A program made the translations under genes and the position numbers. Of a stretch of 64,000 nucleotides of DNA, positions 78 through 47,551 are shown piece after piece. The notes beneath the pieces were generated by a model. It did no database searches, was not told where the DNA came from, and worked only from the letters and a program-made list of their open reading frames with translations. This DNA is from a virus. Lineage: Duplodnaviria; Caudoviricetes. Each line of letters begins with the position of its first letter. Within the stretch, counting starts at the first letter, position 1. The stretch lies in the IMG/VR virus record IMGVR_UViG_3300010998_000021, positions 47,468-111,467 of that record; one strand, 5' to 3'.

Positions 78-1183
78 TTACTCTACGTCAGTTGTGTCCT
101 CGATCATATCAAGAACATTACCATTTTTATCTTCAAGTAAATCAACCATTGTGTTAAGGAATATTCGCTATATATTCCCAAGCGTATAATACGCTTCTCG
201 TACTTTCATACGAAGTGCAGACTATATCTTCATCCTTGCGGATGCCTACCACTTCCACCATCAATAGCTTATGGTGTACTCCTTACGGATAGTCGTTGAA
301 CTTTACTCTATTCGAGTCTTAGCTGCTGGTTGCCCATTATTCCAATACTTAGGATTTAACCTTATATCATCTATATATTTCTTTCAGCTTTCGCAACATT
401 CACGCTTAGACTTATTTCATTCTTACGTTGTAGTATATATAGCTTTAGGGTTTTTCAGCAATTCAATAGGTTATCTTATCACGCACATTTCTGTACGCGC
501 ACACTATCATTATTTAATGTGATTGTCACAGAAGCAGGATCGCCTTCAGAAGAGAAGGAAAGCTCGAAATTTCTCTGAATAGACGCTTTGTAAGCAGTCA
601 TAATGAAAGGTGTAAGGGAATCATCCTCACCCTTATCCAGAGTAGACATTGTAATGTAATAATCCTTCGGAACTTTCTTATTATTGAAGGAAACCTTCTT
701 AACATTCTCAGTTCTCTCTACGATGTAACCAACTTCATACTCGGTATCGACCGCAATATCATTGTTGGTAGTAGCAGTGAACTTGTTAGAAGCATAAGTT
801 CCTGCAATCTGTGTATTGCCAAACTCGCCAGAAGCATACACGAACACTGTACCTGCCTTTGCGCCAATAATATCAAGTTCGCCAGCAGTAGTACATTTAA
901 TAGTTTTCTTCACGGCATAAGCAGCGGTATTATCAATAGTACCATCAGAGAACAGCGCATAAGCCTTGAATGGCATAACCTGTGCTTCGATAGTCATAGT
1001 ACCCTCAATTGGGTTATGGAACGCGATTGCACGCACACCTTTCTTCATAGCATATACACTATCGCCAGAAAGACCAGCAGTAGTGGTATTAGCTGTGTCG
1101 AAGAATAAAAACGGAGCCATCGTTTTCAGTACACGAATATCTACATCAGCGCACTGTCTATTAGCTTTATTAATATCAGGCAT
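78..1183 (-). CDS. Major tail (tube) protein, split by a group I intron: join(517..1183,78..145), about 244 aa
   Basis: Removing 146..516 joins ACA-T|TT-GAT to give ...GDPASVTITFDLLEDKNGNVLDMIEDTTDVE*. It follows the neck genes, has a strong SD, and ends in a tail-tube-like FELSFSSEGDPAS motif. Confidence 0.8.
146..516 (-). ncRNA. Group I intron without ORF (371 nt) in the tail tube gene
   Basis: P1 CACAU|UA pairs with UAGUGUG, giving U.G at the splice site; P2 hairpin with GAAA loop; core elements UUCAACGACUA and AAGAUAUAGUC; P9 CUUCGUAU-GAAA-GUACGAGAAG; terminal G; splicing restores the frame. Confidence 0.9.
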
Positions 1184-4855: not shown

Positions 4856-5797
4856 TTATGCCGCGAGATTGTCTTTAAGAATCTGTTCTATGTTATTAAA
4901 ATCTTTATACCAAATTTCAAGCAACTGGATTTTGTTATCATTTGCATATTTACGTTTACGCCTATCATGTTCTTTCTGATATTCAAGCTGTTCGTATGAT
5001 TGAGAATTAGCTGTGCCATCATGAAATTCGCCCTGATATTCAATAAGTATATTGTTATCTGGTAGATAGAAGTCATATGATAATAATCCACCACCAATAC
5101 CTTTTAAATCAGAAAATGATTTTTGCCATTCGAAATTAACATCGTTATTTTCAAGAAATGTTAGAATTTTCAATTCGCCTTTTGATGTATTGCATATAGG
5201 ACAGCCAGATGGACTTCTTTTCCCTATAAGATTATGTGCTTTAGTTTGCCAAACGTGTCCACATACTTTACATCTACATGTTATTGGTTCATCATCTTTT
5301 GTATATCTGCTTATAATATCTATTGTTCTATGATTCAAGTTACGTTCATTAAACTCGCTAATGAATTGTTCGTGAGATTTAATTCGATAATTTTGAACAT
5401 ATTTCATTGCACAATTTTTACATCCATAACCTCGAATTAACGAATAAGGCATCGAATCCCATTCATTTCCACATTTTTTACATTTGCATTTAATTTTCGT
5501 ATGAGAAGTTTTGTATTCACCAACAATTTCTGTATTTGGATTTATACCTTCAACTTCCTTTATAAATTCATCGTTTGTTTTTCTAACACATTCAGAAACA
5601 TAATCAATAGCACAATATTTGCATCCGTGTTCTGATTTAAGAATAGACATAGGCATTATTTCAAAATCATAGTCATGTATGTTGCAATGAAACATTATTG
5701 GCATTCTCATTTTTCTATAACGACCGATTACGTCTATATGTGGATGTTTCTTTTTAACATCATTAACAAAATCTTCATGTGTAATTACTTTAGACAT
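4856..5797 (-). CDS. Free-standing Zn-ribbon-repeat endonuclease with Vsr/DUF559-like PD-(D/E)XK domain (putative homing endonuclease)
   Basis: Three repeats of THEEF...IGEY...CxxC...GCxxC, then SKGE...YDFYLP...IEYQGEFH...D..K; paralog of the ORFs at 7455 and 11839. Confidence 0.75.
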   Translation of the reverse strand: MSKVITHEDFVNDVKKKHPHIDVIGRYRKMRMPIMFHCNIHDYDFEIMPMSILKSEHGCKYCAIDYVSECVRKTNDEFIKEVEGINPNTEIVGEYKTSHTKIKCKCKKCGNEWDSMPYSLIRGYGCKNCAMKYVQNYRIKSHEQFISEFNERNLNHRTIDIISRYTKDDEPITCRCKVCGHVWQTKAHNLIGKRSPSGCPICNTSKGELKILTFLENNDVNFEWQKSFSDLKGIGGGLLSYDFYLPDNNILIEYQGEFHDGTANSQSYEQLEYQKEHDRRKRKYANDNKIQLLEIWYKDFNNIEQILKDNLAA

Positions 5798-7021: not shown

Positions 7022-8726
7022 TTACGCTACCATAACAACAGCCTTAACAGCCTTTTCCGTAAGCGTAACCTTGTCAGTAACTTTAAAATAAACGCCTGAT
7101 GACGGGGCAGTAGAAGCAACCTCAAGAGTGCCATCTGTCTTAGGCTTCAGCAGAGTAGTTCCAGCGGTAATATCATCATAGTCAGCACCAGAAGCATAAG
7201 TAATATGCTTCTCATCAATAACAAGTTTCTGACCAGCCCAAGCGGAAAGATCATAACCATTCAGGTATTCTCCAGCCTTAATTGTAACGCCATCTTTATA
7301 CGCATCGTCACCATTGATGTCGTTAAGAATCACATAAGTAATTCCATCAACAGTGAGGAAAGAATTATTAACAACATCATTTTGGGATGTAAGGACAGGA
7401 TTGATTTTTGCAATATCCAGCATTCCTAAAGTTTCAACTTTACGATATTGTTTGTCAGCTTGCTAATTCATTTTGTAGTATTTTTTCTATATTTTCATAC
7501 TGTGTATAAGGTATTCTGATTAATCTAATATTATTATCAATACAAAAATCATTTTTAATATCATCATGCTTTTTAAGTTTATCTAAACTATCATTACCAC
7601 CGAAAAAATCTTTTGCAACGTAATGTTGTATTCCGTCATATTCTATAGCAACATTGTATTCTGGAAGATAAAAATCAAATGGTAATACGCGTACATCTTT
7701 GCAATCTTCAAATGTTTTTTGGCATTGATAATCAATTTGTTCATTATTTAACCAATTCTTTATTTTATTTTCTCCACGAGATATTGTGCAGTTAGGACAA
7801 CCATTTCCACCATCTAACATAGTATGTGGCGCACTTGAAAAATACTTTCCGCATTTTTCACATAAACACAATATCTTTGTTTTATTATTTTTATATTCAC
7901 CGATTACTTTAATATCTGGATGTTTATCTTTCATTTCTAAAACAAATTGATCTTGCGTTTTTCGCATCAATCCACTACACACAGGACAACCTTTGCCGTG
8001 TAATAATGAATTTGGAACTGGTTTCCATATATGTCCACATTTTTTACAAGAGACTTCTATGGGTATTCTATTATTTTTATATTCACCTAATACAGTTATG
8101 TCTTCATTTATATCTTTCATTTCAGATATAAATTGTTCCGTTGTTTTGTTTGCACATCCAGCGCAATTAGGACAACCATGACCCATATATAAACTTCCGG
8201 GAGTAGAACTAAATTCATATCCACACACAGTACACTTTAAATTTACTTTAGTTCTACTATTCCTGTATTCACTCAAAACAGTTAATGTTGGATGATTGAC
8301 ATTCATTTCGTGAAGAAATTGTTCATTTGTTTTTCTTCGCAATTTGACCACCAACTTTATTATTATATGAATTAGCAATACGGTTCGCTAAACCGCGCAA
8401 GTTATTAAATAACTTCTCGTACTTTCATACGAAGTCCAGACTATATCATTCATCATGCCATTTCTGGTTTAGATGCCCTCCACTTCGGATGCGCTTGCAT
8501 CCTAACGGCATTTCAGCCGATAGTCGTTGAGCCTTCCCCTGTTCGGGGCTTGGTTGCTGATTGCCCAATCTATTTACTTTTCAAACCATCACACTTACAC
8601 ATATTTCATTGTTATGTTGTGGTAAAATAGCTATAAGGGTTTTCCAGCAGTTCAAAGGGATACATTATATTCTTTCGATATATAACGGACTATTCACATG
8701 GTATATTCAACCATGTTTCTAATCAT
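7022..8726 (-). CDS. Capsid decoration/auxiliary protein split by a group I intron: join(8722..8726,7022..7442), about 141 aa
   Basis: SD AGGAGG then ATG AT|; the second exon T AAA GTT GAA ACT gives MIKVETLGMLDIAK...; lies between the scaffold and capsid genes. Confidence 0.75.
7443..8721 (-). ncRNA. Group I intron (1279 nt) carrying an endonuclease ORF
   Basis: P1 GAU|UA pairs with UAGUC; core GAACUGCUGGAAAACCC, CUCAACGACUA, GAUAUAGUC and P9 CUUCGUAUGAAAGUACGAGAAG closely match the intron at 146-516; terminal G at 7443. Confidence 0.9.
7455..8378 (-). CDS. Intron-encoded Zn-ribbon/Vsr-like homing endonuclease
   Basis: Three CxxC...GCPxC repeats plus SRGE...PFDFYLP...IEYDGIQH; lies inside the intron after P9; true start probably a few codons downstream. 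Confidence 0.8.
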   Translation of the reverse strand: MLIHIIIKLVVKLRRKTNEQFLHEMNVNHPTLTVLSEYRNSRTKVNLKCTVCGYEFSSTPGSLYMGHGCPNCAGCANKTTEQFISEMKDINEDITVLGEYKNNRIPIEVSCKKCGHIWKPVPNSLLHGKGCPVCSGLMRKTQDQFVLEMKDKHPDIKVIGEYKNNKTKILCLCEKCGKYFSSAPHTMLDGGNGCPNCTISRGENKIKNWLNNEQIDYQCQKTFEDCKDVRVLPFDFYLPEYNVAIEYDGIQHYVAKDFFGGNDSLDKLKKHDDIKNDFCIDNNIRLIRIPYTQYENIEKILQNELAS

Positions 8727-10200: not shown

Positions 10201-11838
10201 TTATTGTGTACTCGGTGCAGGAGTACCATTTGTGTTATTTGCTTTTGTCTGCAATGTACTGTAGTTAGAACTATCATCATCAGTAGGTCTGCCAACCTTA
10301 TCATCTTTAGAAGAATATGTATAACTTGTTTGATGAACAGGATATTTGTTTTCTATATTATCTTCTAATTCTTGATCTAACAAAGCAAAATATACTTCTG
10401 GTGAAATTCCAGCAGCACTCGCCCAAAGCGACAATGAACCTTTCCCTTGCAAATACAAATCCTTTGCATTAGCAACCATTGTTTTTTGATTTACATAAGT
10501 AGTAGGAAGATACTTACATTCAACACTATTTCTTTTATCTTTTATTATATTCGCATTGATACATTTATTTAATTCTGCTTCGATTTGTTCTATCCATTGA
10601 AATATTTCTGAACTTAATAATTCTAAATTATTTACTTGCGAAGAATAGTTACCACTTCCAGAGCCATTAAGAAGAGATGCTGCTATACCTAAATCCATTG
10701 CTATTTTATCGCAAAGATTTGACTCATACTTATCATCAAATATATCTGTATTATTTGCATCAATACTGTTAATTTTAGTTCCGGCAGCAACAGAAAAGAA
10801 TGAAATACCACCGCGATTGTTTTTATTCATTACTGCGCCTTTGACTTTTTCGTGTTGATTTTGTTGCTGTTTTTGTGACAGGGCAGAAGTGCCTTTATCT
10901 TTTCCTTCTGGAAAAGTTTGATAAATTATCCTATTATTTATTTCATCTAATACATTTCTTTTAGTATCAGTAAAATAATCACCGTAAAGGACATCGTTAA
11001 TTGCAGCAAGAGCAAGCGGTCTTCCCCACGGTTCTTCTTTGCTACTTCTAATTTTATGAACAATAGTTTTTGTTGGATCAAGAACAACCCATCTTTCATG
11101 ATTCCCTTGATAGTATTTATCTCTAATTTCTTTAGGATATTTTCTCAGTTTTCTATCAGCTTCTTCGCCTTCGCAATTATCAAAATATGATAAATCAAAT
11201 GCTAATTGATAATTCGAGTTTCTTATCCCAATAATCTTTGTATAATCAGGAGATAGTGAAATTATTGACGCATTTATGCCTAATTCATTTATTTCATGTA
11301 TTCTTTCAACGTCATAATTACTCATTATTTTTTCTCTTGATAACGGTCTTTCAGTTGTCTCGAAATAGTAAAACGCAATACCATCAACCATACCACGGAA
11401 AAGCGCATCACGCACAATCTCTTTATGCTTAATGCCTTTAAGCGTAGATTGCATAAGGAGTCTATTTCTTTTCTTTTTCTGTTTACTTTCTCCATAAGGA
11501 ACTATTACATTATCAAGCGTAGGTATGGCAGTCATATAATCAACAGTGTTTGTGTAAACACCGTTACACCCATATAATATGCGAGATATTTCACGTAATA
11601 CCTGATTGTTAGCCATTGGATCACGAATTAAATCCCTTATTTGTTCTGGCTTATATAAATCGAAAACATTCATCATGCCATAATATGAAATGGCGTTAAG
11701 ACGATAAGAACGGAATGAGTTAAATTCATATTCTGTATTATCTTGTTTTATATCTTGTTGTTGATTGTTTTCGTAGTTTAGTTTTTTATAATTACTTCGT
11801 CTATTATAAGAGGAAGTAGTATTATTTTTGTTTGCCAT
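10201..11838 (-). CDS. Portal protein
   Basis: 545 aa after the terminase; EPWGRP motif and C-terminal VGRP typical of SPbeta-like portals. Confidence 0.8.
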   Translation of the reverse strand: MANKNNTTSSYNRRSNYKKLNYENNQQQDIKQDNTEYEFNSFRSYRLNAISYYGMMNVFDLYKPEQIRDLIRDPMANNQVLREISRILYGCNGVYTNTVDYMTAIPTLDNVIVPYGESKQKKKRNRLLMQSTLKGIKHKEIVRDALFRGMVDGIAFYYFETTERPLSREKIMSNYDVERIHEINELGINASIISLSPDYTKIIGIRNSNYQLAFDLSYFDNCEGEEADRKLRKYPKEIRDKYYQGNHERWVVLDPTKTIVHKIRSSKEEPWGRPLALAAINDVLYGDYFTDTKRNVLDEINNRIIYQTFPEGKDKGTSALSQKQQQNQHEKVKGAVMNKNNRGGISFFSVAAGTKINSIDANNTDIFDDKYESNLCDKIAMDLGIAASLLNGSGSGNYSSQVNNLELLSSEIFQWIEQIEAELNKCINANIIKDKRNSVECKYLPTTYVNQKTMVANAKDLYLQGKGSLSLWASAAGISPEVYFALLDQELEDNIENKYPVHQTSYTYSSKDDKVGRPTDDDSSNYSTLQTKANNTNGTPAPSTQ

Positions 11839-12951
11839 TTAACATACCTCCTCGTTAAGTAGCAATTCATTGTCTAAAATAATATCAATATTATCGAAAT
11901 CCTTATATGATATACGAATTAAATGGATATTATGATTTTTGCAATAGTCTGTTTTAATTCTATCTCTTCTTTGCGTTTCTACTAAAGCATTCTCCCCACC
12001 CCATAAATCAACTGCTTCAAAATGTTGAATACCATCATATTCAATTGCTATCGAACAATTTGGGATAAAGAAGTCAAATGGTAAAGTATATATATCTTTG
12101 CAATCATCAAATCTATATTGTGCAACATATTCTATATTGTTGTCATTTAAAAATTTTCTAATACGTTTTTCACCTTTTGATGAAGCACAATATGGGCAAC
12201 CACGTAAATTATGAAGTAAATTCCTTGGTGATGATTCGTTGATATTACCACAAGATTTACATCTATATGCTATCTTTGTATCCATATTTTTGTATTCACC
12301 AATAATTTCGATGTTATTATTTATTTCAAACAATTTTTCTGCGAAAGAATCAGTAGTATACTTAGCCACGCCAGAACACACAGGGCATCCTGTACCAAAT
12401 AATAAATTCCCCGGACGCGCATTCCATTCATTCCCACATTCTTTACATCTGCATTTTACTTTAGTAAATGAATTTTTGTATTCATCTAAAATCTCAATAT
12501 TCGAATTTATTGTCCTAAGTTTTTCAACGAATGTTTCGGTAGTGTATCTTTCTTTCTTTGAACATCTCGGACATCCATAACCGTTTAATAACGAAGATGG
12601 GACTGCCATATATTCATACCCACAAATAGAACATGCACATCGAATTTTAATATTATTCCTCACATATTTGCCAAGTGGAACGATATGTTTATTAGCTTCT
12701 TTTAATTCAGCAATAAATTCATCATTACTTTTTGATTTTATATCTGAACTCCTTTTATTTGAACATAATGGGCATCCATGCCCTTTTAATAAGTTATGTG
12801 GAAACGCACTCCATGTGTGTCCACATTTAATACATTCGCATTCTATATAATCATTCGTCCTTTTATATTGACCAATAATTTTTATGTTTGGATTTATATT
12901 CTTGATTTGATTGATAAATTCCTCATGTGTTTTCTTCCGCATTTTAATCAC
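11839..12951 (-). CDS. Free-standing Zn-ribbon-repeat Vsr-like endonuclease
   Basis: Four CxxC/GCPxC repeats plus SKGE...PFDFFIP...IEYDGIQH. Confidence 0.75.
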   Translation of the reverse strand: MIKMRKKTHEEFINQIKNINPNIKIIGQYKRTNDYIECECIKCGHTWSAFPHNLLKGHGCPLCSNKRSSDIKSKSNDEFIAELKEANKHIVPLGKYVRNNIKIRCACSICGYEYMAVPSSLLNGYGCPRCSKKERYTTETFVEKLRTINSNIEILDEYKNSFTKVKCRCKECGNEWNARPGNLLFGTGCPVCSGVAKYTTDSFAEKLFEINNNIEIIGEYKNMDTKIAYRCKSCGNINESSPRNLLHNLRGCPYCASSKGEKRIRKFLNDNNIEYVAQYRFDDCKDIYTLPFDFFIPNCSIAIEYDGIQHFEAVDLWGGENALVETQRRDRIKTDYCKNHNIHLIRISYKDFDNIDIILDNELLLNEEVC

Positions 12952-21461: not shown

Positions 21462-22904
21462 CTATATATAAACAACCATTTCTTTATTGGCGCAAACGAC
21501 CTTATATGTCTTGTTATTTTTAGATATTTGTTCTCTAAGATTTTCTGCCAAGCAACATTTAGAAGATTCAGAACCATGCACAAGTATGAGTTTAGTTGTA
21601 TTTAATGAACTCCCGTATTTAACAAGGTCATTATGATCTGCATGACTGCTAAATGTTGACAAAGAAATGCAGTCTGCTTTGTTCGGAATGCGCTCTTTGT
21701 TAATACTTATAGTAGAACGGTTGTTATAATTTTTAATTCTATATGAAAGATATGACGGATTATCACCGACATATCCTGAAAAAATAATCATGCTATTGGT
21801 ATTTTTAAGATGCTTTTTCAAATAATTAACAACTCTTCCGTTTGTACAAAAGCCAGAAGATGATATAACAATCTTTGGTTTGTTATCAGCGATGTAAGAC
21901 TGAGACAATGCCTTATCTGAAACAAATTTTACATGTTTCCATTTGCGAACTTTGTTCCATAAATTTAAATTTTCTCCGTCTAAAATGCACGAATATAAAT
22001 CACTTATTTCGCAACTAAGTTTTGAATCAACAATAATTTCAGTATTAAATGCATCATCATTATGGAACAGAATATATAGATTAGTCAGTAGTTCCTGTGT
22101 TCTACTAAAACTAAAACAAGGAAGGATAACACTTCCTTTTCGCTCGATAACTGTATTGATTGCCACCCTTAAATGTTCTAAATCAAATTGTCTACTTTTC
22201 TTTGATAATCGCTTATCACTCCCATATGTAGATTCACAAATTGTAACATCTGAAAAAGCGTCTGGTATTTCTGTATTTGGAACGTAATGATTATCAGTTT
22301 TTAATGAACCTAAGTCTGAAGTATATAATATCTTTTTGGTTTTTAATTTTCCTTTCAGTATTAGCTGTAATTGCGCTGCGCCTATACAATGCGAATTTTT
22401 TAACCATTGAAAGCCAACTGTATCATTAAGATTTATTATCGTATTATAATCATCGTATTCATACACAAGTTTCATTGTTTCTATTACATCATTTTCTGTA
22501 TAAAGCGGATTGTATACTCTATGGTATTTCTTAGATAATAGTCGTGCTTCTTCATTCAAGATATATGAACTATTTAAAAGAAGTGACTTCATTATTTTTG
22601 CTGTATTACTTGTGACTATTATTTTCCCACTGAACCCTTCTTTGACAAGCCGAGGAATTAAACCAGTGTGGTCTATGTGAGCATGGCATACAAATACGAA
22701 GTCAATATCTTTTGGATTAAACTTAAATTTTTCACTATTAATCCTATAGCTGTCTAAATAGTCATTGCTACTTGACTGGTAGAGTCCACATTCAAGAAGT
22801 ATTTGACAATCACCAAATCTGACAAGGTACTGCGATCCAGTTACTTCTATTGACGATTGACCTAAGAAGTATATGCCATCACGTTTATATTTCTTTTTTG
22901 CCAT
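21462..22904 (-). CDS. Metallo-beta-lactamase beta-CASP nuclease (YSH1/CPSF73-like)
   Basis: EVTGS, HAHIDH, SHCIG, YTSDLG, ESTYG, FSFSRTQE, FSSHAD, LVHG. Confidence 0.9.
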   Translation of the reverse strand: MAKKKYKRDGIYFLGQSSIEVTGSQYLVRFGDCQILLECGLYQSSSNDYLDSYRINSEKFKFNPKDIDFVFVCHAHIDHTGLIPRLVKEGFSGKIIVTSNTAKIMKSLLLNSSYILNEEARLLSKKYHRVYNPLYTENDVIETMKLVYEYDDYNTIINLNDTVGFQWLKNSHCIGAAQLQLILKGKLKTKKILYTSDLGSLKTDNHYVPNTEIPDAFSDVTICESTYGSDKRLSKKSRQFDLEHLRVAINTVIERKGSVILPCFSFSRTQELLTNLYILFHNDDAFNTEIIVDSKLSCEISDLYSCILDGENLNLWNKVRKWKHVKFVSDKALSQSYIADNKPKIVISSSGFCTNGRVVNYLKKHLKNTNSMIIFSGYVGDNPSYLSYRIKNYNNRSTISINKERIPNKADCISLSTFSSHADHNDLVKYGSSLNTTKLILVHGSESSKCCLAENLREQISKNNKTYKVVCANKEMVVYI

Positions 22905-22938
22905 ACAATTACCGCCTATTATTTCGTAATTTTTAAAA

Positions 22939-23028
22939 CGGCGAGAGTAGGATTTGAACCCACGAACCGCTCAACACGGTTTTCTGTTTTCAAGACAGAC
23001 GCTTTAAACCAAACTCAGCCATCTCGCC
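22939..23028 (-). tRNA. tRNA-Ser(TGA)
   Basis: GGCGAGA/TCTCGCC acceptor, CTTGAAA loop, long variable arm, GTTCAAAT T-loop. Confidence 0.9.
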
Positions 23029-23039
23029 AATCTGATAAA

Positions 23040-23124
23040 TGGGTAGAGTAGGAGTCGAACCTACGATGTTTCCAATGTGCCAGATTTACAGTCTGGTGCA
23101 ATCGCCAACTATGCATACCTACCC
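23040..23124 (-). tRNA. tRNA-Tyr(GTA)
   Basis: CCAGA-CTGTAAA-TCTGG anticodon arm and GTTCGACT T-loop. Confidence 0.9.
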
Positions 23125-23131
23125 ATGAATA

Positions 23132-23567
23132 AATGCATAGCGTCTTTATAGAAAACTGAATAAATATAATCCAACCAATTATCATTGATAATACGTAGTA
23201 GTTTGTTACGTTCTATCAATTATCTTCTAAGCACTCAAATATAGAATTATCCAATAAATAAGAATAATAAAAGACTGTATCGCTGGTTGAATTATCGAAT
23301 ATTGTAAGAATGGATTCTGAAAGTGAGTAGGACGTATAACGGAAAGCGCGAAACGCTTATCGATGTGTTTTGCATATAACCTATCTGATATTTTCCCAAT
23401 CCAAATCTATGAAAATTATCGGGCTTGTTGTTCATCAAACATAAATTTTTTAAATGTAAAACAGATTTACATGGCATAAGGGATACCGCCCACGCAGCCT
23501 TATATTTCATCTGCGTCTGAAACGATTGAATTACAAAATTCAGTTCTCAATAAAGACACTATGCATT
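23132..23567 (-). ncRNA. Candidate large structured RNA
   Basis: 30-bp terminal inverted repeat (23132-23161 with 23538-23567); two of three mismatches are G.U pairs on the minus strand; five GATAATT copies inside. Confidence 0.55.
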
Positions 23568-23623
23568 ACTCCAAATATTGAAATGTTATAATTCCATAAA
23601 TGGAAATTTCTTGTTATATCTAT

Positions 23624-24259
23624 TTATGAATTTAAATTTTTAGCATATGATTCAACAACATCCTCGAAACTTTCACCGATTTCAAAGATTGGCTCATAGT
23701 CAACTTTTGAATGTAGTTGCATTTCATCAATGGCATCTGATGTTTCATCTAATTCATGTCTAAGCCGTGAAATCTTACCCTTGATTAAATTCCTATCGAA
23801 ATCAATGGTTGTTACTTGCTCTATATCATATTTGTACTGGACTTGTTCACCGTCTGCATTAAACTTATCAGATTCGCCTTTTATAGTAGACTCTGATGCT
23901 TTCAATCCTGCCATTGTTTCATAAGTCCTTAGTATATTTCTCTTTTTATTATTCATAGCAATCATGGCATCATAAGATTTATCTTCGTATGATTTTGCCT
24001 TATTTATTGCATGTGTTAGATAATCAATCTCGTTGACAAGAATATCTATAAAGCTAACAAGATCATTGATTCCATATGGATGTTCAACTTGTTTCTTTAC
24101 AACAATTACTTCATCTGTTGCTTCTGAATAAGATTTTTTACGAAGATGTTTCTGTGTCGTAGTTGTAATATTGTCTCGATAAGATAATACTGATAATGCA
24201 CTACTGAGCAATTCTGATAAGTAATTCTGATACTCGAATGATTTCTTTAACGTAATCAT
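23624..24259 (-). CDS. Conserved coiled-coil hypothetical protein directly upstream of the candidate RNA
   Basis: 211 aa, strong SD AGGAGG; MITLKKSFEYQN...FNADGEQVQYKYD...TTIDFDR. Confidence 0.7.
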   Translation of the reverse strand: MITLKKSFEYQNYLSELLSSALSVLSYRDNITTTTQKHLRKKSYSEATDEVIVVKKQVEHPYGINDLVSFIDILVNEIDYLTHAINKAKSYEDKSYDAMIAMNNKKRNILRTYETMAGLKASESTIKGESDKFNADGEQVQYKYDIEQVTTIDFDRNLIKGKISRLRHELDETSDAIDEMQLHSKVDYEPIFEIGESFEDVVESYAKNLNS

Positions 24260-24511
24260 TTCTTTCCTCCTGACTCATATATTGTTATAACTATTTATTC
24301 AAAACTTTTCTGAAAGCGCACCCGATACAGAGCGAATCCTACACCGAGTACGCAAACAAGAAAAGAGAGAGATAAAGAAAGTGAAAGGGCAATCATATAT
24401 TCCCTTCATATCACGGAATTATAAAAGTGTTAAAGTACACGTTAAAAAACACGCAAAAATAGCCACTTTGAAGCAATATAGAAAATTATTGAGTAAAATT
24501 GCTGTGCGGAA

Positions 24512-25385: not shown

Positions 25386-26291
25386 TTACTCCTTTACTGA
25401 ATTTAAATTTTTCATAGTAATAATATCGTTCTTTAACATCCTCAAAATATCACTGTCATCTTTGTTTCTGAAATTTTCTGTAATCCTAAAATCATCTATA
25501 TTATCTTTTAAAATATTTTTCTGTTTATTTAATATGGCTTTAACCTTACAAATTTTAACATAATCCGTCTTACTATTAATATCTGGATGAACACGAAATT
25601 CTCCATCAAATATCGAATATACAAATTTTAATCCATAACCAATTCTCAATTCGGATATATCATCAAAATCAAAATCAAAATCATCATTTACACCATATAA
25701 GGCTTTTAGATAAAAGATGAATGATTTTGTTGCTGACAATGTATTAAACGCCTCTTCTGTAATCTGCACAGTATCGTCACTGTCAATATCGACAAAGATT
25801 AAACCAGAATATCGTGTTGTGTTAAATCTATGATATACATTCAAAATCAAATCATTTTCATCAAAATAGCGTTTAGTATCATCGCAATTAAAGACATCGT
25901 TCCTACATCTTGAATAATTTAGCAACCCCTTGTTATATATATTTACATAACTGTTATTATTCATCAATTCTGTGTCTAAAAAATATTTCTGAACAAAAAC
26001 ATCAGAATCACATTCTGCAACGTTATAACCATACAGAGGGTTATTTGTGAAATATCTGCGTATCATTTTTGTCTCAACAGACTTAGCTTCTTTTTCTGTA
26101 TTAAACTCACCTATTAAAATATGTTCAATATTTTGCCATCCATATTTTTGGATAGCATTCCATATAAGAGGTTGATAACTGTAACCAATTCCATTTTTCC
26201 CAAATCTCGTATTTAAATCTTTGCACGTATATCCATAATACCTTTTTCCATTTGGAAACAGATGAAGATAAACTTTATGCTTATTATTCAA
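25386..26291 (-). CDS. GIY-YIG domain protein (putative homing endonuclease)
   Basis: VYLHLFPNGKRYYGYT...R...AIQKYGW...E...I...NPLYGYN. Confidence 0.7.
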   Translation of the reverse strand: MNNKHKVYLHLFPNGKRYYGYTCKDLNTRFGKNGIGYSYQPLIWNAIQKYGWQNIEHILIGEFNTEKEAKSVETKMIRRYFTNNPLYGYNVAECDSDVFVQKYFLDTELMNNNSYVNIYNKGLLNYSRCRNDVFNCDDTKRYFDENDLILNVYHRFNTTRYSGLIFVDIDSDDTVQITEEAFNTLSATKSFIFYLKALYGVNDDFDFDFDDISELRIGYGLKFVYSIFDGEFRVHPDINSKTDYVKICKVKAILNKQKNILKDNIDDFRITENFRNKDDSDILRMLKNDIITMKNLNSVKE

Positions 26292-29049
26292 CTATTACCA
26301 CCTCTGTCTCTATCATAGAAAATCCAATTCCTTCATATTGAAAATCTGGATGTTCATCACAAAATTTAGGGAAACAGATTTTGTTGTTTTTGTGTTTCAA
26401 TAAGTTTTTAATAATTTGTTCACCACATATATCCCAAGCAAACTGTTTTGTTGAGTTTTTCCCATAACATATATCAAGAACTATATTACACAATTCTTCC
26501 TCATTGGTACATATCACTTCACATTCAGCACGAAAAACATCAGCTATTTTTTGTTTCTCTGCTGTAATATCGTCAAATCTTTCTAAACGCGCACGTTTAC
26601 GAAGTTTATCAAGTTTCATTATATATGTGTTATACATATTCATAATTTGATTATAGTTTGCTTTTGAATATGTCGTCTCTGATTTCATTATGTTATAATC
26701 AAATAAACTTGAATTATTTATCTTTCTCAAATAACCGCTGAACTCATTTTCAAAAATCCAACTAATCCTATTTACAACACATGGGTTATATCCAACTGGC
26801 AAGAGCATATAATAATAATTCAAAAATTCTTTTTCGTCTTTGGTTAATGAATTTGAAACCAATAATTCATCAATTCCTTTAGAGAATAACGAATATGATT
26901 TAAAATCTACATTCTTAACAAAAATATCGTATTCCTTTTTTAAATGTGGATAGACGTAAATCATAAAGTATGGTTTTCGATCAGCTACAATGCTCATATT
27001 AAAATGTTTCCGCTCTATGGTTTCTTTGTCATCACCATCTTTAACAACATTTGGTCTGCGGCTATACCATTCATCTGGCATCGGCTTTGCAATAATTCCT
27101 TTTGCCCTGTCGATTGTACATTGCTGATAATGCTGACCACACATAATCCTATCGCTTAATTCGTTATATGCTTCGTCTGTTAATTCGGCATTTGCCTGTC
27201 TTTCAATCATTGTTGTTACACGATTAGTAACTGTCCCTATGTCATCATTAAAAGCTAACTTGTTAGAAGCTATAATGGATTTATCATCTGGAATTACCTT
27301 ATCAGCCTTATGTTGCACACATACTATAGTTGGAGAGTTTTTCGTCCTGCGAAGAATAATCGGATTATCTGTATCCATATTAGTATCGCCATCTTTGTCT
27401 TGTCCGTTCATGGCGTCACAAGTTGTATCCCATGCGTTCAGAATAATAGCAGTAGTGATGTACTGATACCAATGCTTTACATTTTCGTCTGCATTCAGTT
27501 TTAACTTGCGTATATTATTATGGCATGTCATAGGCGCACGAAAACACGACAATTCTTTAGAACCTTTATCAATCCAGTATTTATGATATAGTTCTCCTGA
27601 TTTTAATAACCCTGTCACTTCCAAGCCATACATGCTCTGACATAGTGCATAAGGATCACCAGAAATCATAGCATAATTTGCTTCAATAGATATTACGCCT
27701 TTTTTGGCATCGTTAATCCGCTTGCTAATCATGGTCATGATACGCTTATGAACAAACGGATCGTTTATCATTTGAGGTTCAATCATCAATGCGCGAGAAA
27801 CATAATCAAAGTTCTCAGAGCCAAAACCAGCAAACACATTTTTGCTGTTTAATCCCATTCCGCAAAGAAACACGATTGCTTTCCTATAATCCATGCCGAA
27901 TATATCTTTAATGCTGTCGATTGTCGGTTTGCAAAGTTCATATAGTTCAGCATCATCAAATTCATAGCTCTGTAAAAATTGATAATTTGTATTGTGGATG
28001 TGTTCTAATTCCATAGGAGTTGTCTTTGTCGCAGAAAACTCATAGTGGTTATTCTGACAGTTTTTGTAGAAATCCTCCCAATTTTTATAACCATCCCATA
28101 GTTTTAGCATTGACGTTGTAAGTATCACATCTGCTTCTCTGACATCGCGATCATCGCCCCATGCGTCCTTGATAATATAAGTTCCTGCGACCTTTTCCGC
28201 GAACTCTACAAAGTCAAAAGTATAAACCATTCCTTTTGTCCACGCATAGCGACAAGTAAATCCAGATAAGGTTTCATCTTCAATATCGTTTAAGAAAAGA
28301 TTTATCTTCTTTGAATATTCTGGTGACATCAAGCCATAGCCATCAGAATCGTTGTGTTCGATTTCATAATTTTCAACATGTGTTAATGTTGGTTTTCCTT
28401 CATTGGCATCATCTATAAGAATTACATTGTCCGTAAAATGTGTAATACAGTCATTAACTACAATAATTCCTTTCGGTTCTGGAAGTGCTACAGAGCCAGA
28501 ACACACAAGAGCCTGATATGCCTCTAATTTTGCAGGAACTAAAAGCTGCTCTTTATTTCGTCCATTATCAATTCTTTCCTGAAGCTGGTCATGAAGTCTT
28601 TTACTTACATAGACGATAGTTGAATTTTTAATTCCCCCGTTTGTTCCAAGAAGTCTTTTATATTCAACACCGTTTACAGTGAAACCTTTTGAGTTCAGGA
28701 GATCATAATCTTTATTACTATCCATAACCACACAGAGATAATCTTTTTGATATTGGATATCGTAGAGCGTTTGATATAAATTGCGAATTAATGCTTTTGT
28801 TTCGGGTGAACGCTTTCTCTTTTTTACCTGTTTCATTTTCCGTTTGATTTCTTTTGCTTTATCGTCAGAATCCAATGCGTTATTAAACTCATCAATGAAG
28901 CGCAAAATCTGGCTGTCGTTTAAAGATATGATACACTCTGGATAATCGCGCATGGCAACATCTAAAGGAAGTTCATATTTATAATTTGATTTCCTTATGT
29001 CTCTTGAATGTAATTTATAAACAAACTTATGGCATCGTTTTTGTTCTAT
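26284..29049 (-). CDS. Single-subunit phage RNA polymerase related to eukaryotic RdRPs (YonO-like)
   Basis: Catalytic GQDKDGD (DxDGD), CFRAP, SDGYG and IDRAKG motifs; the frame extends 32 codons upstream of the tracked ATG (28953) to an ATA preceded by SD GGGAGGT. Confidence 0.85.
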   Translation of the reverse strand: MEQKRCHKFVYKLHSRDIRKSNYKYELPLDVAMRDYPECIISLNDSQILRFIDEFNNALDSDDKAKEIKRKMKQVKKRKRSPETKALIRNLYQTLYDIQYQKDYLCVVMDSNKDYDLLNSKGFTVNGVEYKRLLGTNGGIKNSTIVYVSKRLHDQLQERIDNGRNKEQLLVPAKLEAYQALVCSGSVALPEPKGIIVVNDCITHFTDNVILIDDANEGKPTLTHVENYEIEHNDSDGYGLMSPEYSKKINLFLNDIEDETLSGFTCRYAWTKGMVYTFDFVEFAEKVAGTYIIKDAWGDDRDVREADVILTTSMLKLWDGYKNWEDFYKNCQNNHYEFSATKTTPMELEHIHNTNYQFLQSYEFDDAELYELCKPTIDSIKDIFGMDYRKAIVFLCGMGLNSKNVFAGFGSENFDYVSRALMIEPQMINDPFVHKRIMTMISKRINDAKKGVISIEANYAMISGDPYALCQSMYGLEVTGLLKSGELYHKYWIDKGSKELSCFRAPMTCHNNIRKLKLNADENVKHWYQYITTAIILNAWDTTCDAMNGQDKDGDTNMDTDNPIILRRTKNSPTIVCVQHKADKVIPDDKSIIASNKLAFNDDIGTVTNRVTTMIERQANAELTDEAYNELSDRIMCGQHYQQCTIDRAKGIIAKPMPDEWYSRRPNVVKDGDDKETIERKHFNMSIVADRKPYFMIYVYPHLKKEYDIFVKNVDFKSYSLFSKGIDELLVSNSLTKDEKEFLNYYYMLLPVGYNPCVVNRISWIFENEFSGYLRKINNSSLFDYNIMKSETTYSKANYNQIMNMYNTYIMKLDKLRKRARLERFDDITAEKQKIADVFRAECEVICTNEEELCNIVLDICYGKNSTKQFAWDICGEQIIKNLLKHKNNKICFPKFCDEHPDFQYEGIGFSMIETEVVIVE

Positions 29050-46561: not shown

Positions 46562-47551
46562 ATGCCAGCAAATGTAGAAACAATGTTTAGTGGAAACGGT
46601 ATTCTTCCGTGGCACGAATGCGGAACAGTTATTCAGGGGACAGCATCAAGCGCAGAAGCTATTAAACTTGCAGGACTTGATTGGGATGTTATTCCAAAAC
46701 CGATTTATGATGAATTTGGTCGGGAGCTTCCGGGGTACAAAGTGAATATGAGATCAAGTGATAACACGGCGCTTGGCATTGTAACTGATCGTTATCGCAT
46801 TGTTCAGAACAGTGAAGCGTTCGCTTTTACCGATGCTCTTCTTGGTGAAGGGGTAAGGTATGAAACCGCTGGAAGTCTTGCATCTGGCAAAAGAGTATGG
46901 ATGCTTGCGAGAATGGAAAACACTTTGCTCGCTGAAGAAAATATTGATCCATATCTTGTATTTACCAATAGTCATGATGGCACAGGCGCTATTCGTGTGG
47001 CTCTCGTTCCCATACGCGTAGTGTGTAGTAATACTTTAAATCTTGCACTTCATCAGGCGAGTCGGCATTGGTCTTGTGTACATAAGGGAGACATTCAGAG
47101 CAAGCTCGAAGAAGCAAGGTTTACACTTTCAAGCGCGGAACGCTATATGGAGGCGCTTGAGGAAGAATTTGGCGAACTGAAGCTCAAGAAAGTCACTGAA
47201 GCACAGGTTAGAAATATGACGGAAAAACTTCTTGAGATCGAGTTCAATAACCTGTTTAACAAGGCGCTGAAAACTGGAAACGTTATTGACTTCAAAGAGC
47301 GTTTACGTCAGCAGAAATATGAGGACAAGCTGAACACGAAGCGCAATGATATCCTCACAATTTATCATGACAAGCCAGACCTTGTAGGAACTGAGTATAG
47401 CGCATTCCGCTTTATCAATGCAGTCAGTGACTATGCAACACATACAACAGACCATAAACAGACAAAGAACTATCAGGAAAATCTGTTTATGAAAACTATT
47501 GACGGTAATGGACTTATTGATACAGCTTATCAGCTTGCGCTTGCAGCGTAA
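46562..47551 (+). CDS. DUF932/DUF945 phage-plasmid family protein
   Basis: PWH, AGLDW.V, YETAGSL..GKRVW, NSHDG, PIRVVC.NTL. Confidence 0.85.
   Translation: MPANVETMFSGNGILPWHECGTVIQGTASSAEAIKLAGLDWDVIPKPIYDEFGRELPGYKVNMRSSDNTALGIVTDRYRIVQNSEAFAFTDALLGEGVRYETAGSLASGKRVWMLARMENTLLAEENIDPYLVFTNSHDGTGAIRVALVPIRVVCSNTLNLALHQASRHWSCVHKGDIQSKLEEARFTLSSAERYMEALEEEFGELKLKKVTEAQVRNMTEKLLEIEFNNLFNKALKTGNVIDFKERLRQQKYEDKLNTKRNDILTIYHDKPDLVGTEYSAFRFINAVSDYATHTTDHKQTKNYQENLFMKTIDGNGLIDTAYQLALAA

Follow-up and report, generated by a model that had tools for sequence, protein, structure and literature searches.

A large structured RNA and its partner gene p211 in phages and bacteria of the gut and rumen

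Introduction

Large, conserved and intricately folded RNAs are rare, and each class found so far has opened new biology. A 64,000-nucleotide (nt) stretch of DNA from an uncultured virus of the Caudoviricetes (positions 47,468 to 111,467 of the 111,467-base IMG/VR record IMGVR_UViG_3300010998_000021; this whole stretch is called the window below) raises the question whether such an RNA is encoded directly behind a gene for a protein of 211 amino acids (aa), here named p211. An earlier reading of the window, made from its letters alone, had proposed a module of protein and large non-coding RNA with a 30-base-pair (bp) closing stem, recurrent GAUAAUU motifs bound by the protein, and release of the RNA by tRNA processing. 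Here we show that p211 and the RNA are an obligate gene pair and that the structure is an RNA-level one. The window is AT-rich, and several studies of gut metagenomes, from bovine, sheep and other animal hosts, contain its sequence as well.

A conserved structure read as RNA

The features of the element and its partner gene are, in the order of transcription:

23624..24259, minus strand: p211, the 211-aa gene, from the list of open reading frames (ORFs); partner gene of the RNA
23132..23567, minus strand: complete gene of the structured RNA, about 436 nt when measured between the outer ends of the closing helix (inverted repeat, folding, covariation); these are the limits of the helix, not mapped transcript ends
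23538..23567, minus strand: P1 closing helix, 5' arm (inverted repeat; covariation)
23524..23533, minus strand: P2, 5' strand, a consensus helix (alignment A3, columns 44-54 with 580-589) with most pairs changed on both sides, recovered in two further analyses
23492..23523, minus strand: H-type pseudoknot (alignment A5, 41 sequences), composed of helix A (23523-23519 with 23508-23504), helix B (23516-23511 with 23497-23492) and an extra pair (23509 with 23500)
23275..23314, minus strand: candidate central tract of about five 8-nt units (family periodicity), containing one of the five GAUAAUU copies
23167..23176, minus strand: P2, 3' strand, with the family-invariant AAUUG block before it (invariant columns in alignment A3, pairing, enriched words AATTGG and TTGGTT)
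23132..23161, minus strand: P1 closing helix, 3' arm (inverted repeat; covariation)

The two arms of the inverted repeat, 23132-23161 and 23538-23567, are 30 nt each, 90% complementary and 376 nt apart, as the sequence-only reading had described them. Their three non-Watson-Crick positions read U.G, U.U and G.U on the minus strand, so that, again as described, two of them are wobble pairs on this strand only. The minus strand from 23623 to 23126 folds with an energy of -126.1 kcal/mol compared with -92.2 +/- 5.6 in 100 shuffles (z = -6.06), none of which was as good. In relatives first reached via the neighbouring nuclease gene, the element is again present and its closing helix shows compensatory changes. 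For 18 full-length relatives, RNAalifold returned a P1 of 27 bp, a P2 of about 10 bp and a hairpin of 6 bp, with 38 of the 44 consensus pairs changed on both sides; nearly all 27 consensus pairs of P1 showed compensatory changes. The 3' regions of p211 homologs hold the covarying stem for which the sequence-only reading had proposed to look, whereas the repeats sought with it are not shared.

The 6-bp consensus hairpin is one half of an H-type pseudoknot. The search for this motif, which required pairing, found it in 67 of 90 RNAs, representing 42 distinct sequences, and removal of one spurious row (L103) left 41. Across these, 98.2% of the cells are paired compared with 84.4% in shuffles, and all six pairs of helix B covary. 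The extra pair, which played no part in the selection of the sequences, is U-A in 28 and C-G in 13 of them, and 38 of the 41 sequences keep a G.U pair where helix A ends.

The strand bias of the mismatches was followed in the closing helices of 121 unique viral and metagenome loci, found with Watson-Crick scoring only. The counts cover the 90 loci that passed the threshold and leave out the remaining 31. The mismatches comprised 209 of G.U type, 43 of A.C type and 40 others, counts that are inflated by related sequences while their direction is clear. The large excess of the G.U type implies that the fold is read as RNA, from the p211 strand. Covariation and wobble bias together show an RNA-level structure on the minus strand, which bears out the earlier preference for an RNA helix over a DNA element, and 23567-23132 is almost certainly a real conserved RNA gene.

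In these loci the closing helix is 28 bp long and spans a median of 447 nt (380-533). It starts a median of 16 nt past the p211 stop codon, too close for the RNA to have its own promoter in between; the RNAs of Selenomonadales genomes are shorter (about 300-410 nt). In the window the gap between the stop side of p211 and the first arm is 56 nt, close to the 55 nt estimated before.

Four RNA libraries, taken from three studies, have contigs on the element (23101-23531, 23171-23516, 23209-23515 and 23245-23521), which demonstrates its presence in RNA libraries, short of proven transcription. None of the four libraries yielded contigs over 23605-23950, the 3' half of p211, and the contigs of the element end at 23515-23531; as contigs cannot show transcript ends, no conclusion is drawn from this pattern. 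A head-to-tail joint within the element was absent among the RNA-library contigs. The only joint, seen in two of them, connects 22964 to 23081 within the tRNAs with 14 foreign letters between, and most likely stems from tRNA genes of other organisms that match the conserved tRNA arms.

The RNA had been called uncharacterised, and the covariance models of Rfam agree. Rfam 15 gave no family for the element at the gathering score or at E<=10, where a permissive scan returned the tRNAs and chance matches only, and 20 diverse related loci were likewise without match, ROOL and GOLLD included. In a BLAST search of the 1.4-kb region against 50,697 phage records only the tRNAs matched. A column-pair scan of 27 non-redundant full-length rows revealed no second pseudoknot, with the limit that the variable interior is beyond the reach of an alignment built on sequence. 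For seven close relatives RNAalifold suggested that the 3' strand of helix B pairs over a long range with a block in mid-RNA, an idea that was dropped when a wider set gave no support.

The RNA and p211 occur together

Alignment-based scans for relatives of p211 reached 98 viral, 268 metagenome and 89 genome stretches, and 80 loci were kept from each. At least 640 nt of downstream sequence was available for 141 of the viral and metagenome loci, 121 of them unique. A long-range helix scoring at least 36 follows soon after the p211 stop codon in 116 of these 121, the best shuffle scoring 31. Two of the five exceptions (L038, L102) carry the RNA by sequence; in the other three (L089, L097, L134) the helix is absent within the range searched. 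Among bacterial genome loci the long closing helix is present in 76 of 77, and the exception (L240) scores 32. Iterated nhmmer searches detected the RNA in 41 of 67 and later in 118 of 161 unique RNAs, and 24 of 26 loci without a match to the RNA sequence still have the helix: similarity of the RNA sequence decays faster than its architecture.

The reverse scan applied the pseudoknot pattern to all viral contigs and reported 93 stretches, with 80 sites in the loci listed. All 66 sites with at least 800 nt upstream have p211 there, as do 12 of the 14 sites with less; a strict RNA pattern added one new locus. p211 is the only gene common to all 67 viral loci, the next commonest neighbour occurring in 21, and the RNA is always on the same strand as p211 and downstream of it. 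These results show that p211 and the RNA are an obligate gene pair, as the idea of a protein and RNA module had it, and the two very probably constitute one functional unit.

The proposed release of the RNA by tRNA processing fared differently. Of 89 loci, just 12 have a tRNA at most 15 nt after the RNA; the number rises to 27 at a distance of 250 nt and to 31 at 1 kb. Processing of a tRNA could therefore serve a minority of loci at most and cannot be the general release route.

GAUAAUU copies and the centre of the RNA

The five copies of GATAATT that had been noted on the minus strand (23177, 23218, 23245, 23290 and 23414) are all present. Five copies on one strand within 244 nt make up a local cluster, given that chance would place about 0.13 copies in a single strand of 436 nt; in the window overall, the word stands at chance level (37 matches vs 33.7 +/- 5.4). 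One copy overlaps the family-invariant AAUUG block before P2. The copies are already gone in relatives whose protein is 63-73% identical, and no 6-mer is present at least three times in more than one of 57 non-redundant RNAs. By these comparisons the GAUAAUU repeats are lineage-specific and no feature of the family, and this part of the earlier reading does not hold generally. Clusters of AAUU or UUCRA as a family feature were also rejected (2.25 observed vs 2.13 in shuffles).

Instead, a period of 8 nt is the only one that stands out among 99 non-redundant RNAs, with a mean z of 1.0 and z>=2 in 21 of 99, compared with 0-10 at other periods. The periodic tract always lies near the middle of the RNA (interquartile range 0.44-0.57 of its length) and has about five units, each octamer with about three fixed and five variable positions. 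Tandem Repeats Finder (TRF) found no tandem repeats over 23000-24400, nor did a repeat search. The 5-nt spacing of VIPR RNAs gave a mean z of 0.07, and none of the 99 RNAs reached z>=3 at this period. A degenerate central tract of 8-nt period, rather than GAUAAUU, would thus be the repeat feature common to the family.

The p211 protein

Searches of Pfam, PHROGs, PADLOC, the PDB by sequence and the ESM Atlas gave no function for p211. Pfam has no family for it at E<=0.01 and PHROGs offers one weak match of unknown function. TROVE, which with a vWA domain makes up Ro60, the protein partner of Y RNA, is matched by none of 22 family members at E<=0.1, among 25 families listed. The rows for Tail Tube gp217 and PVC gp192 (E 0.16-0.2) and for GajB (E 0.0095) are weak and not significant. 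A tblastn search of p211 against the 50,697 phage records gave no match, the p211 profile had none in the phage T5 record at E<=10, and a peptide-pattern scan from p211 alone found nothing, although the alignment-based scans did find relatives. Other searches gave 94 clusters of relatives in one case and 948 representatives at E<=1e-3 in another.

The AF2 model of p211 (predicted local distance difference test, pLDDT, 91.8) consists of long helices and two beta-hairpins. Its best match among solved structures is 3kdq, a protein of unknown function, which came first of 48,161 chains in VIA-align (Z 10.0, root-mean-square deviation 4.7, 146 of 152 residues), a score to be read with care, since the mere arrangement of helices often lifts such models to Z 8-13; Foldseek assigned the same pair a probability of 0.99 with E 0.06. 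Cas5-, Cas6- or Cas7-like chains were absent among the listed Foldseek and VIA-align matches, where the library may lack Vipr structures and no Vipr sequence was compared. A homodimer model scored 0.59 compared with 0.00 for the best of three controls, with at least 95% of contacts shared between runs and a partner pLDDT of at least 86. In a benchmark, 20 of 30 proteins solved as one-chain pairs scored this high, compared with 1 of 23 solved as single chains. The family-invariant residues T32, H38, Y144, I152 and D153 sit in the modelled interface of this symmetric dimer.

Occurrence in phages and bacterial genomes

The pair recurs hundreds of times, in large phages, in integrase-linked elements and at chromosomal sites in Bacillota of gut and rumen. 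Most genomes lack it: sampling of two families gave p211 in 17 of 81 genomes of one and 4 of 81 of the other, and genomes with the pair carry one to three copies. It is distributed in the manner of an accessory, mobile module. In the genome titled Clostridiales bacterium CCNA10 an integrase and a 184-aa gene precede p211 and the RNA, which are followed by a 139-aa gene and tRNA-Pro; neighbours of this element include a C5 methylase, an SNF2 helicase, Vsr, a MobL relaxase and a second integrase. In Selenomonas ruminantium the pair is followed by an LRAT/NlpC protein and a protein kinase. Near-identical pairs with the same closing-helix sequence (L204-L229) were found in assemblies titled Flavonifractor, Pseudoflavonifractor, Intestinimonas, Lawsonibacter, Owariibacterium and Dysosmobacter, and their sequences point to a recent spread of one element across genera. 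Cultured carriers, by record title, are Selenomonas ruminantium ATCC 12561, Pseudoflavonifractor capillosus ATCC 29799 and Intestinimonas massiliensis.

Two smaller observations concern such sites. The integrated element L212, which carries the pair, holds segments of about 67 nt that are 75% alike (1934-2001, 2764-2872 and 5077-5143) upstream of successive genes, one of them just before p211 and one after the 139-aa gene; these may be repeated regulatory leaders or cassette borders. In 17 Selenomonadaceae or Quinella loci (L247, L250 and 15 others) the RNA ends just before the start codon of cydA. This site could be an insertion hot spot or could reflect a link to the expression of cydAB.

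Proposed function and its alternatives

We favour, at even odds for the account as a whole, the view that the pair comprises a stable, uncatalogued non-coding RNA which together with p211 forms a ribonucleoprotein (RNP) serving as an accessory conflict module. The RNA would be co-transcribed with the upstream p211 gene, and the 24-40-bp helix that pairs its ends would act as a processing and protection stem; the RNase III stems around ribosomal RNAs provide an analogy. P2 and the compact pseudoknot would organise the 5' side and variable hairpins would occupy the middle, where the central tract would remain single-stranded and offer about five units at 8-nt spacing. p211 may dock on the RNA, most plausibly on this periodic tract or on the conserved inner closing helix, and the resulting RNP could act in trans in conflicts among mobile elements and hosts, be it in defence, counter-defence or addiction. 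The parts of this account differ in strength. That p211 and the RNA build a physical particle is in our view about evenly balanced, while a conflict role of the module is possible and somewhat doubtful.

Other functions have to be weighed against this account. p211 could be harmful and the RNA could bind and neutralise it, as in a type III-like toxin-antitoxin or abortive-infection pair. A compact two-part module with ever-changing neighbours, several copies per genome, a patchy distribution and a presence in phages, integrative elements and chromosomes beside defence genes would all suit such a pair. We nevertheless regard it as unlikely, given that the RNA is located downstream, is single and is not tandemly repeated by TRF or repeat search, that the p211 fold matches no toxin and that PADLOC returned nothing significant. 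Rather unlikely, too, is a cis-acting 3' untranslated region that stays on the p211 message and controls its stability, termination or translation, with neither a role in trans nor a particle. The short median distance from the stop codon without a promoter of the RNA's own and the invariable position downstream on the same strand are what such a region predicts, but an RNA of 300-530 nt that combines a conserved pseudoknot and a periodic tract with a closing helix of 24-40 bp far exceeds the needs of known 3' stabilisers, and a helix that joins the RNA's own ends would usually signal an excised stable RNA. The RNA could also self-assemble and work alone, as an ornate particle like ROOL, GOLLD or OLE, with p211 helping to fold, load or regulate it. 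The large ornate RNA of rumen and gut phages and prophages, with a tRNA within 250 nt in 27 of 89 loci, invites this comparison; the lack of a covariance-model match to any Rfam family at E<=10 and the strict two-way pairing with one protein gene make it quite improbable.

The central tract suggests a further role for the RNA as a guide, in which p211 units arranged along the 8-nt units would expose variable bases to recognise nucleic acid. The roughly three fixed and five variable positions per octamer would fit, and VIPR is a case of phage proteins reading periodic RNA repeats (10.64898/2026.04.26.720920). Still, we found no 5-nt periodicity, no focus of variation in the tract, only about five units and no RAMP-like match among the listed fold matches of p211, and consider a guide very improbable. 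The same holds for its most specific form, a long shot in which p211 dimers polymerise on the 8-nt units, hold the fixed bases and present the variable ones as a gapped code for target recognition. If that were true, RNA-guided interference among mobile elements would have arisen a further time, independently and without a RAMP protein, in parallel with VIPR and CRISPR. A function at the DNA level, as single-strand origin, single-strand promoter, recombination site or miniature inverted-repeat transposable element (MITE), is scarcely credible. It would explain the long inverted repeat and its position at the ends of integrated elements in some genomes. Against it stand the strand-specific wobble bias, the covarying pseudoknot with its conserved G.U, the presence in RNA libraries and the occurrence in double-stranded DNA phages and at chromosomal sites without transfer genes in view; the element is moreover single-copy in the 111,467-base record, which speaks against the MITE that the sequence-only reading had named as a possible refutation.

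Several observations weigh against the conflict RNP that we favour. The RNA-library contigs may contain DNA and do not by themselves prove a discrete transcript, its ends or its strand. The p211 family is acidic (median isoelectric point 5.1, net charge -6), and Pfam reveals no known RNA-binding domain in p211 or in members of its family. The 8-nt periodicity is modest, with z>=1.5 in 33 of 99 RNAs, and is weak in the window itself (23314-23275, z 1.1, 17 of 32 matches). Variation within six groups of close relatives, viewed in coarse bins of 20 columns, is spread over the interior and not focused in the tract. Finally, in 17 Selenomonadaceae loci the pair lies directly upstream of cydAB and behind PBP2 or a TPR protein, between housekeeping genes with no mobile-element gene in view, so that a conflict role rests on the patchy distribution and on the neighbours in other genomes.

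Relation to known systems

In type III toxin-antitoxin systems such as ToxIN, short tandem RNA repeats lie upstream of an endoribonuclease toxin. They share with our pair the two-part organisation of protein and RNA on phages, plasmids and chromosomes, whereas here a single large folded RNA lies downstream. The partner of the OLE RNA, like that of the RNA studied here, is encoded next to it, and both are large structured RNAs of Bacillota. OLE is described as working as a ribonucleoprotein with Oap partner proteins (PMC11332333). The differences are the lack of an Rfam match, a soluble, acidic partner encoded upstream, and a module that is mobile and patchy where OLE is lineage-bound.

The RNA-only assemblies ROOL (RF03087) and GOLLD (RF01998) are phage-associated and have been described by cryo-electron microscopy (PMC12286853). 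They too are large ornate non-coding RNAs of Bacillota phages and prophages in rumen and gut. ROOL and GOLLD often lie near tRNA genes; here a tRNA is within 250 nt in 27 of 89 loci. The RNA described here matches neither covariance model, is smaller (380-533 nt), has a 24-40-bp end helix and always lies behind p211. To our knowledge, neither ROOL nor GOLLD has been reported to pair strictly, in both directions, with a single protein gene.

VIPR loci, as characterised in the two reports (10.64898/2026.04.26.720920; 10.64898/2026.04.26.720927), are minimal, mostly phage-borne pairs of protein and RNA that also occur in proviruses, chromosomes and plasmids. Their vrRNA is given as about 100 nt with 9-16 units of 5 nt (GGY/NN), and Vipr as a RAMP (RRM) protein (10.64898/2026.04.26.720920). 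Both RNAs appear to join a periodic tract of fixed and variable bases to a pseudoknotted constant part. The RNA here differs from this description by its 300-530 nt, a period of about 8 nt, about five units and the lack of a 5-nt signal; the p211 model resembles 3kdq whereas Vipr is a RAMP, and no hypervariable positions were seen in the 20-column bins.

The pair would thus work most like a partner-dependent structured RNA such as OLE/Oap or Vipr/vrRNA, while its habitat is most like that of ROOL and GOLLD. By model match, period, size and protein fold it appears to belong to none of ROOL/GOLLD, VIPR and OLE. In the literature searched on ROOL and GOLLD, phage structured RNAs, vrRNA/Vipr and related candidates we found no description of the pair, with the limit that part of it, for instance the pseudoknot, could be listed in the supplementary tables of PMC10690425 and PMC8040213; PMC10690425 gives lengths of 29-151 nt for its candidate RNAs. 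The pair is probably an undescribed protein-RNA machine. It is common, with 948 representative clusters of the partner protein, and is present in phages and bacteria of the human gut and rumen; the obligate partner gene and the cultured carriers make it directly testable. If it is an RNP of mobile-element conflicts, it would join CRISPR, retrons, TIGR and VIPR as a new protein-RNA system. If not, the fold of the RNA would still be new in combining a long closing helix with a conserved pseudoknot and a periodic tract.

Genomic setting in the window

All genes around the element are on the minus strand. In the order of transcription they encode a YonO/RdRP-like RNA polymerase, a GIY-YIG protein, a zinc-ribbon protein, p211, the RNA element, tRNA-Tyr, tRNA-Ser, a beta-CASP nuclease, a ClpP-like protease and an Mre11-like exonuclease. 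Three further features flank the pair:

24418..24445, minus strand: promoter-like site upstream of p211 (TTAACG, 16 nt, TATAAT; 10 of 12 consensus positions), from a consensus scan alone
23039..23125, minus strand: tRNA-Tyr (GUA), 6 nt past the last arm; a neighbour here and no constant part of the module
22938..23029, minus strand: tRNA-Ser (UGA), the next gene downstream; context

The promoter-like site is weak evidence because the scanned region has fewer such sites than expected (6 found vs 9.2). The spacing of 6 nt to tRNA-Tyr compares with the 7 nt counted in the sequence-only reading.

Several neighbours deserve mention in their own right. The 889-aa protein at 26284-28953 (minus strand) contains a eukaryote-type RNA-dependent RNA polymerase (RdRP) domain (Pfam PF05183, E 1.2e-7) and has strong PHROG matches of unknown function; we take it to be a YonO-like single-subunit phage RNA polymerase. 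In 21 of 67 viral loci a relative is encoded upstream of p211, at a distance of no more than 3.5 kb. The GIY-YIG protein is encoded at 25386-26291. Further away, a group I intron at 197-504 (minus strand; Rfam RF00028, 71.8 bits compared with a gathering score of 50) adjoins an ORF at 479-1183. Three paralogous CapR/DUF4379/DUF723 zinc-finger proteins (4856-5797, 7455-8378 and 11839-12951, minus strand) are dispersed among the structural genes, which include the portal gene at 10201-11838, and look like insertions of the homing-endonuclease type. Directly after the tRNAs, at 21462-22904 (minus strand), follows the beta-CASP/RMMBL nuclease of RNase J or CPSF type. Its relatives in 27 viral loci have tRNA genes upstream too, and the enzyme may be a phage RNA-processing enzyme.

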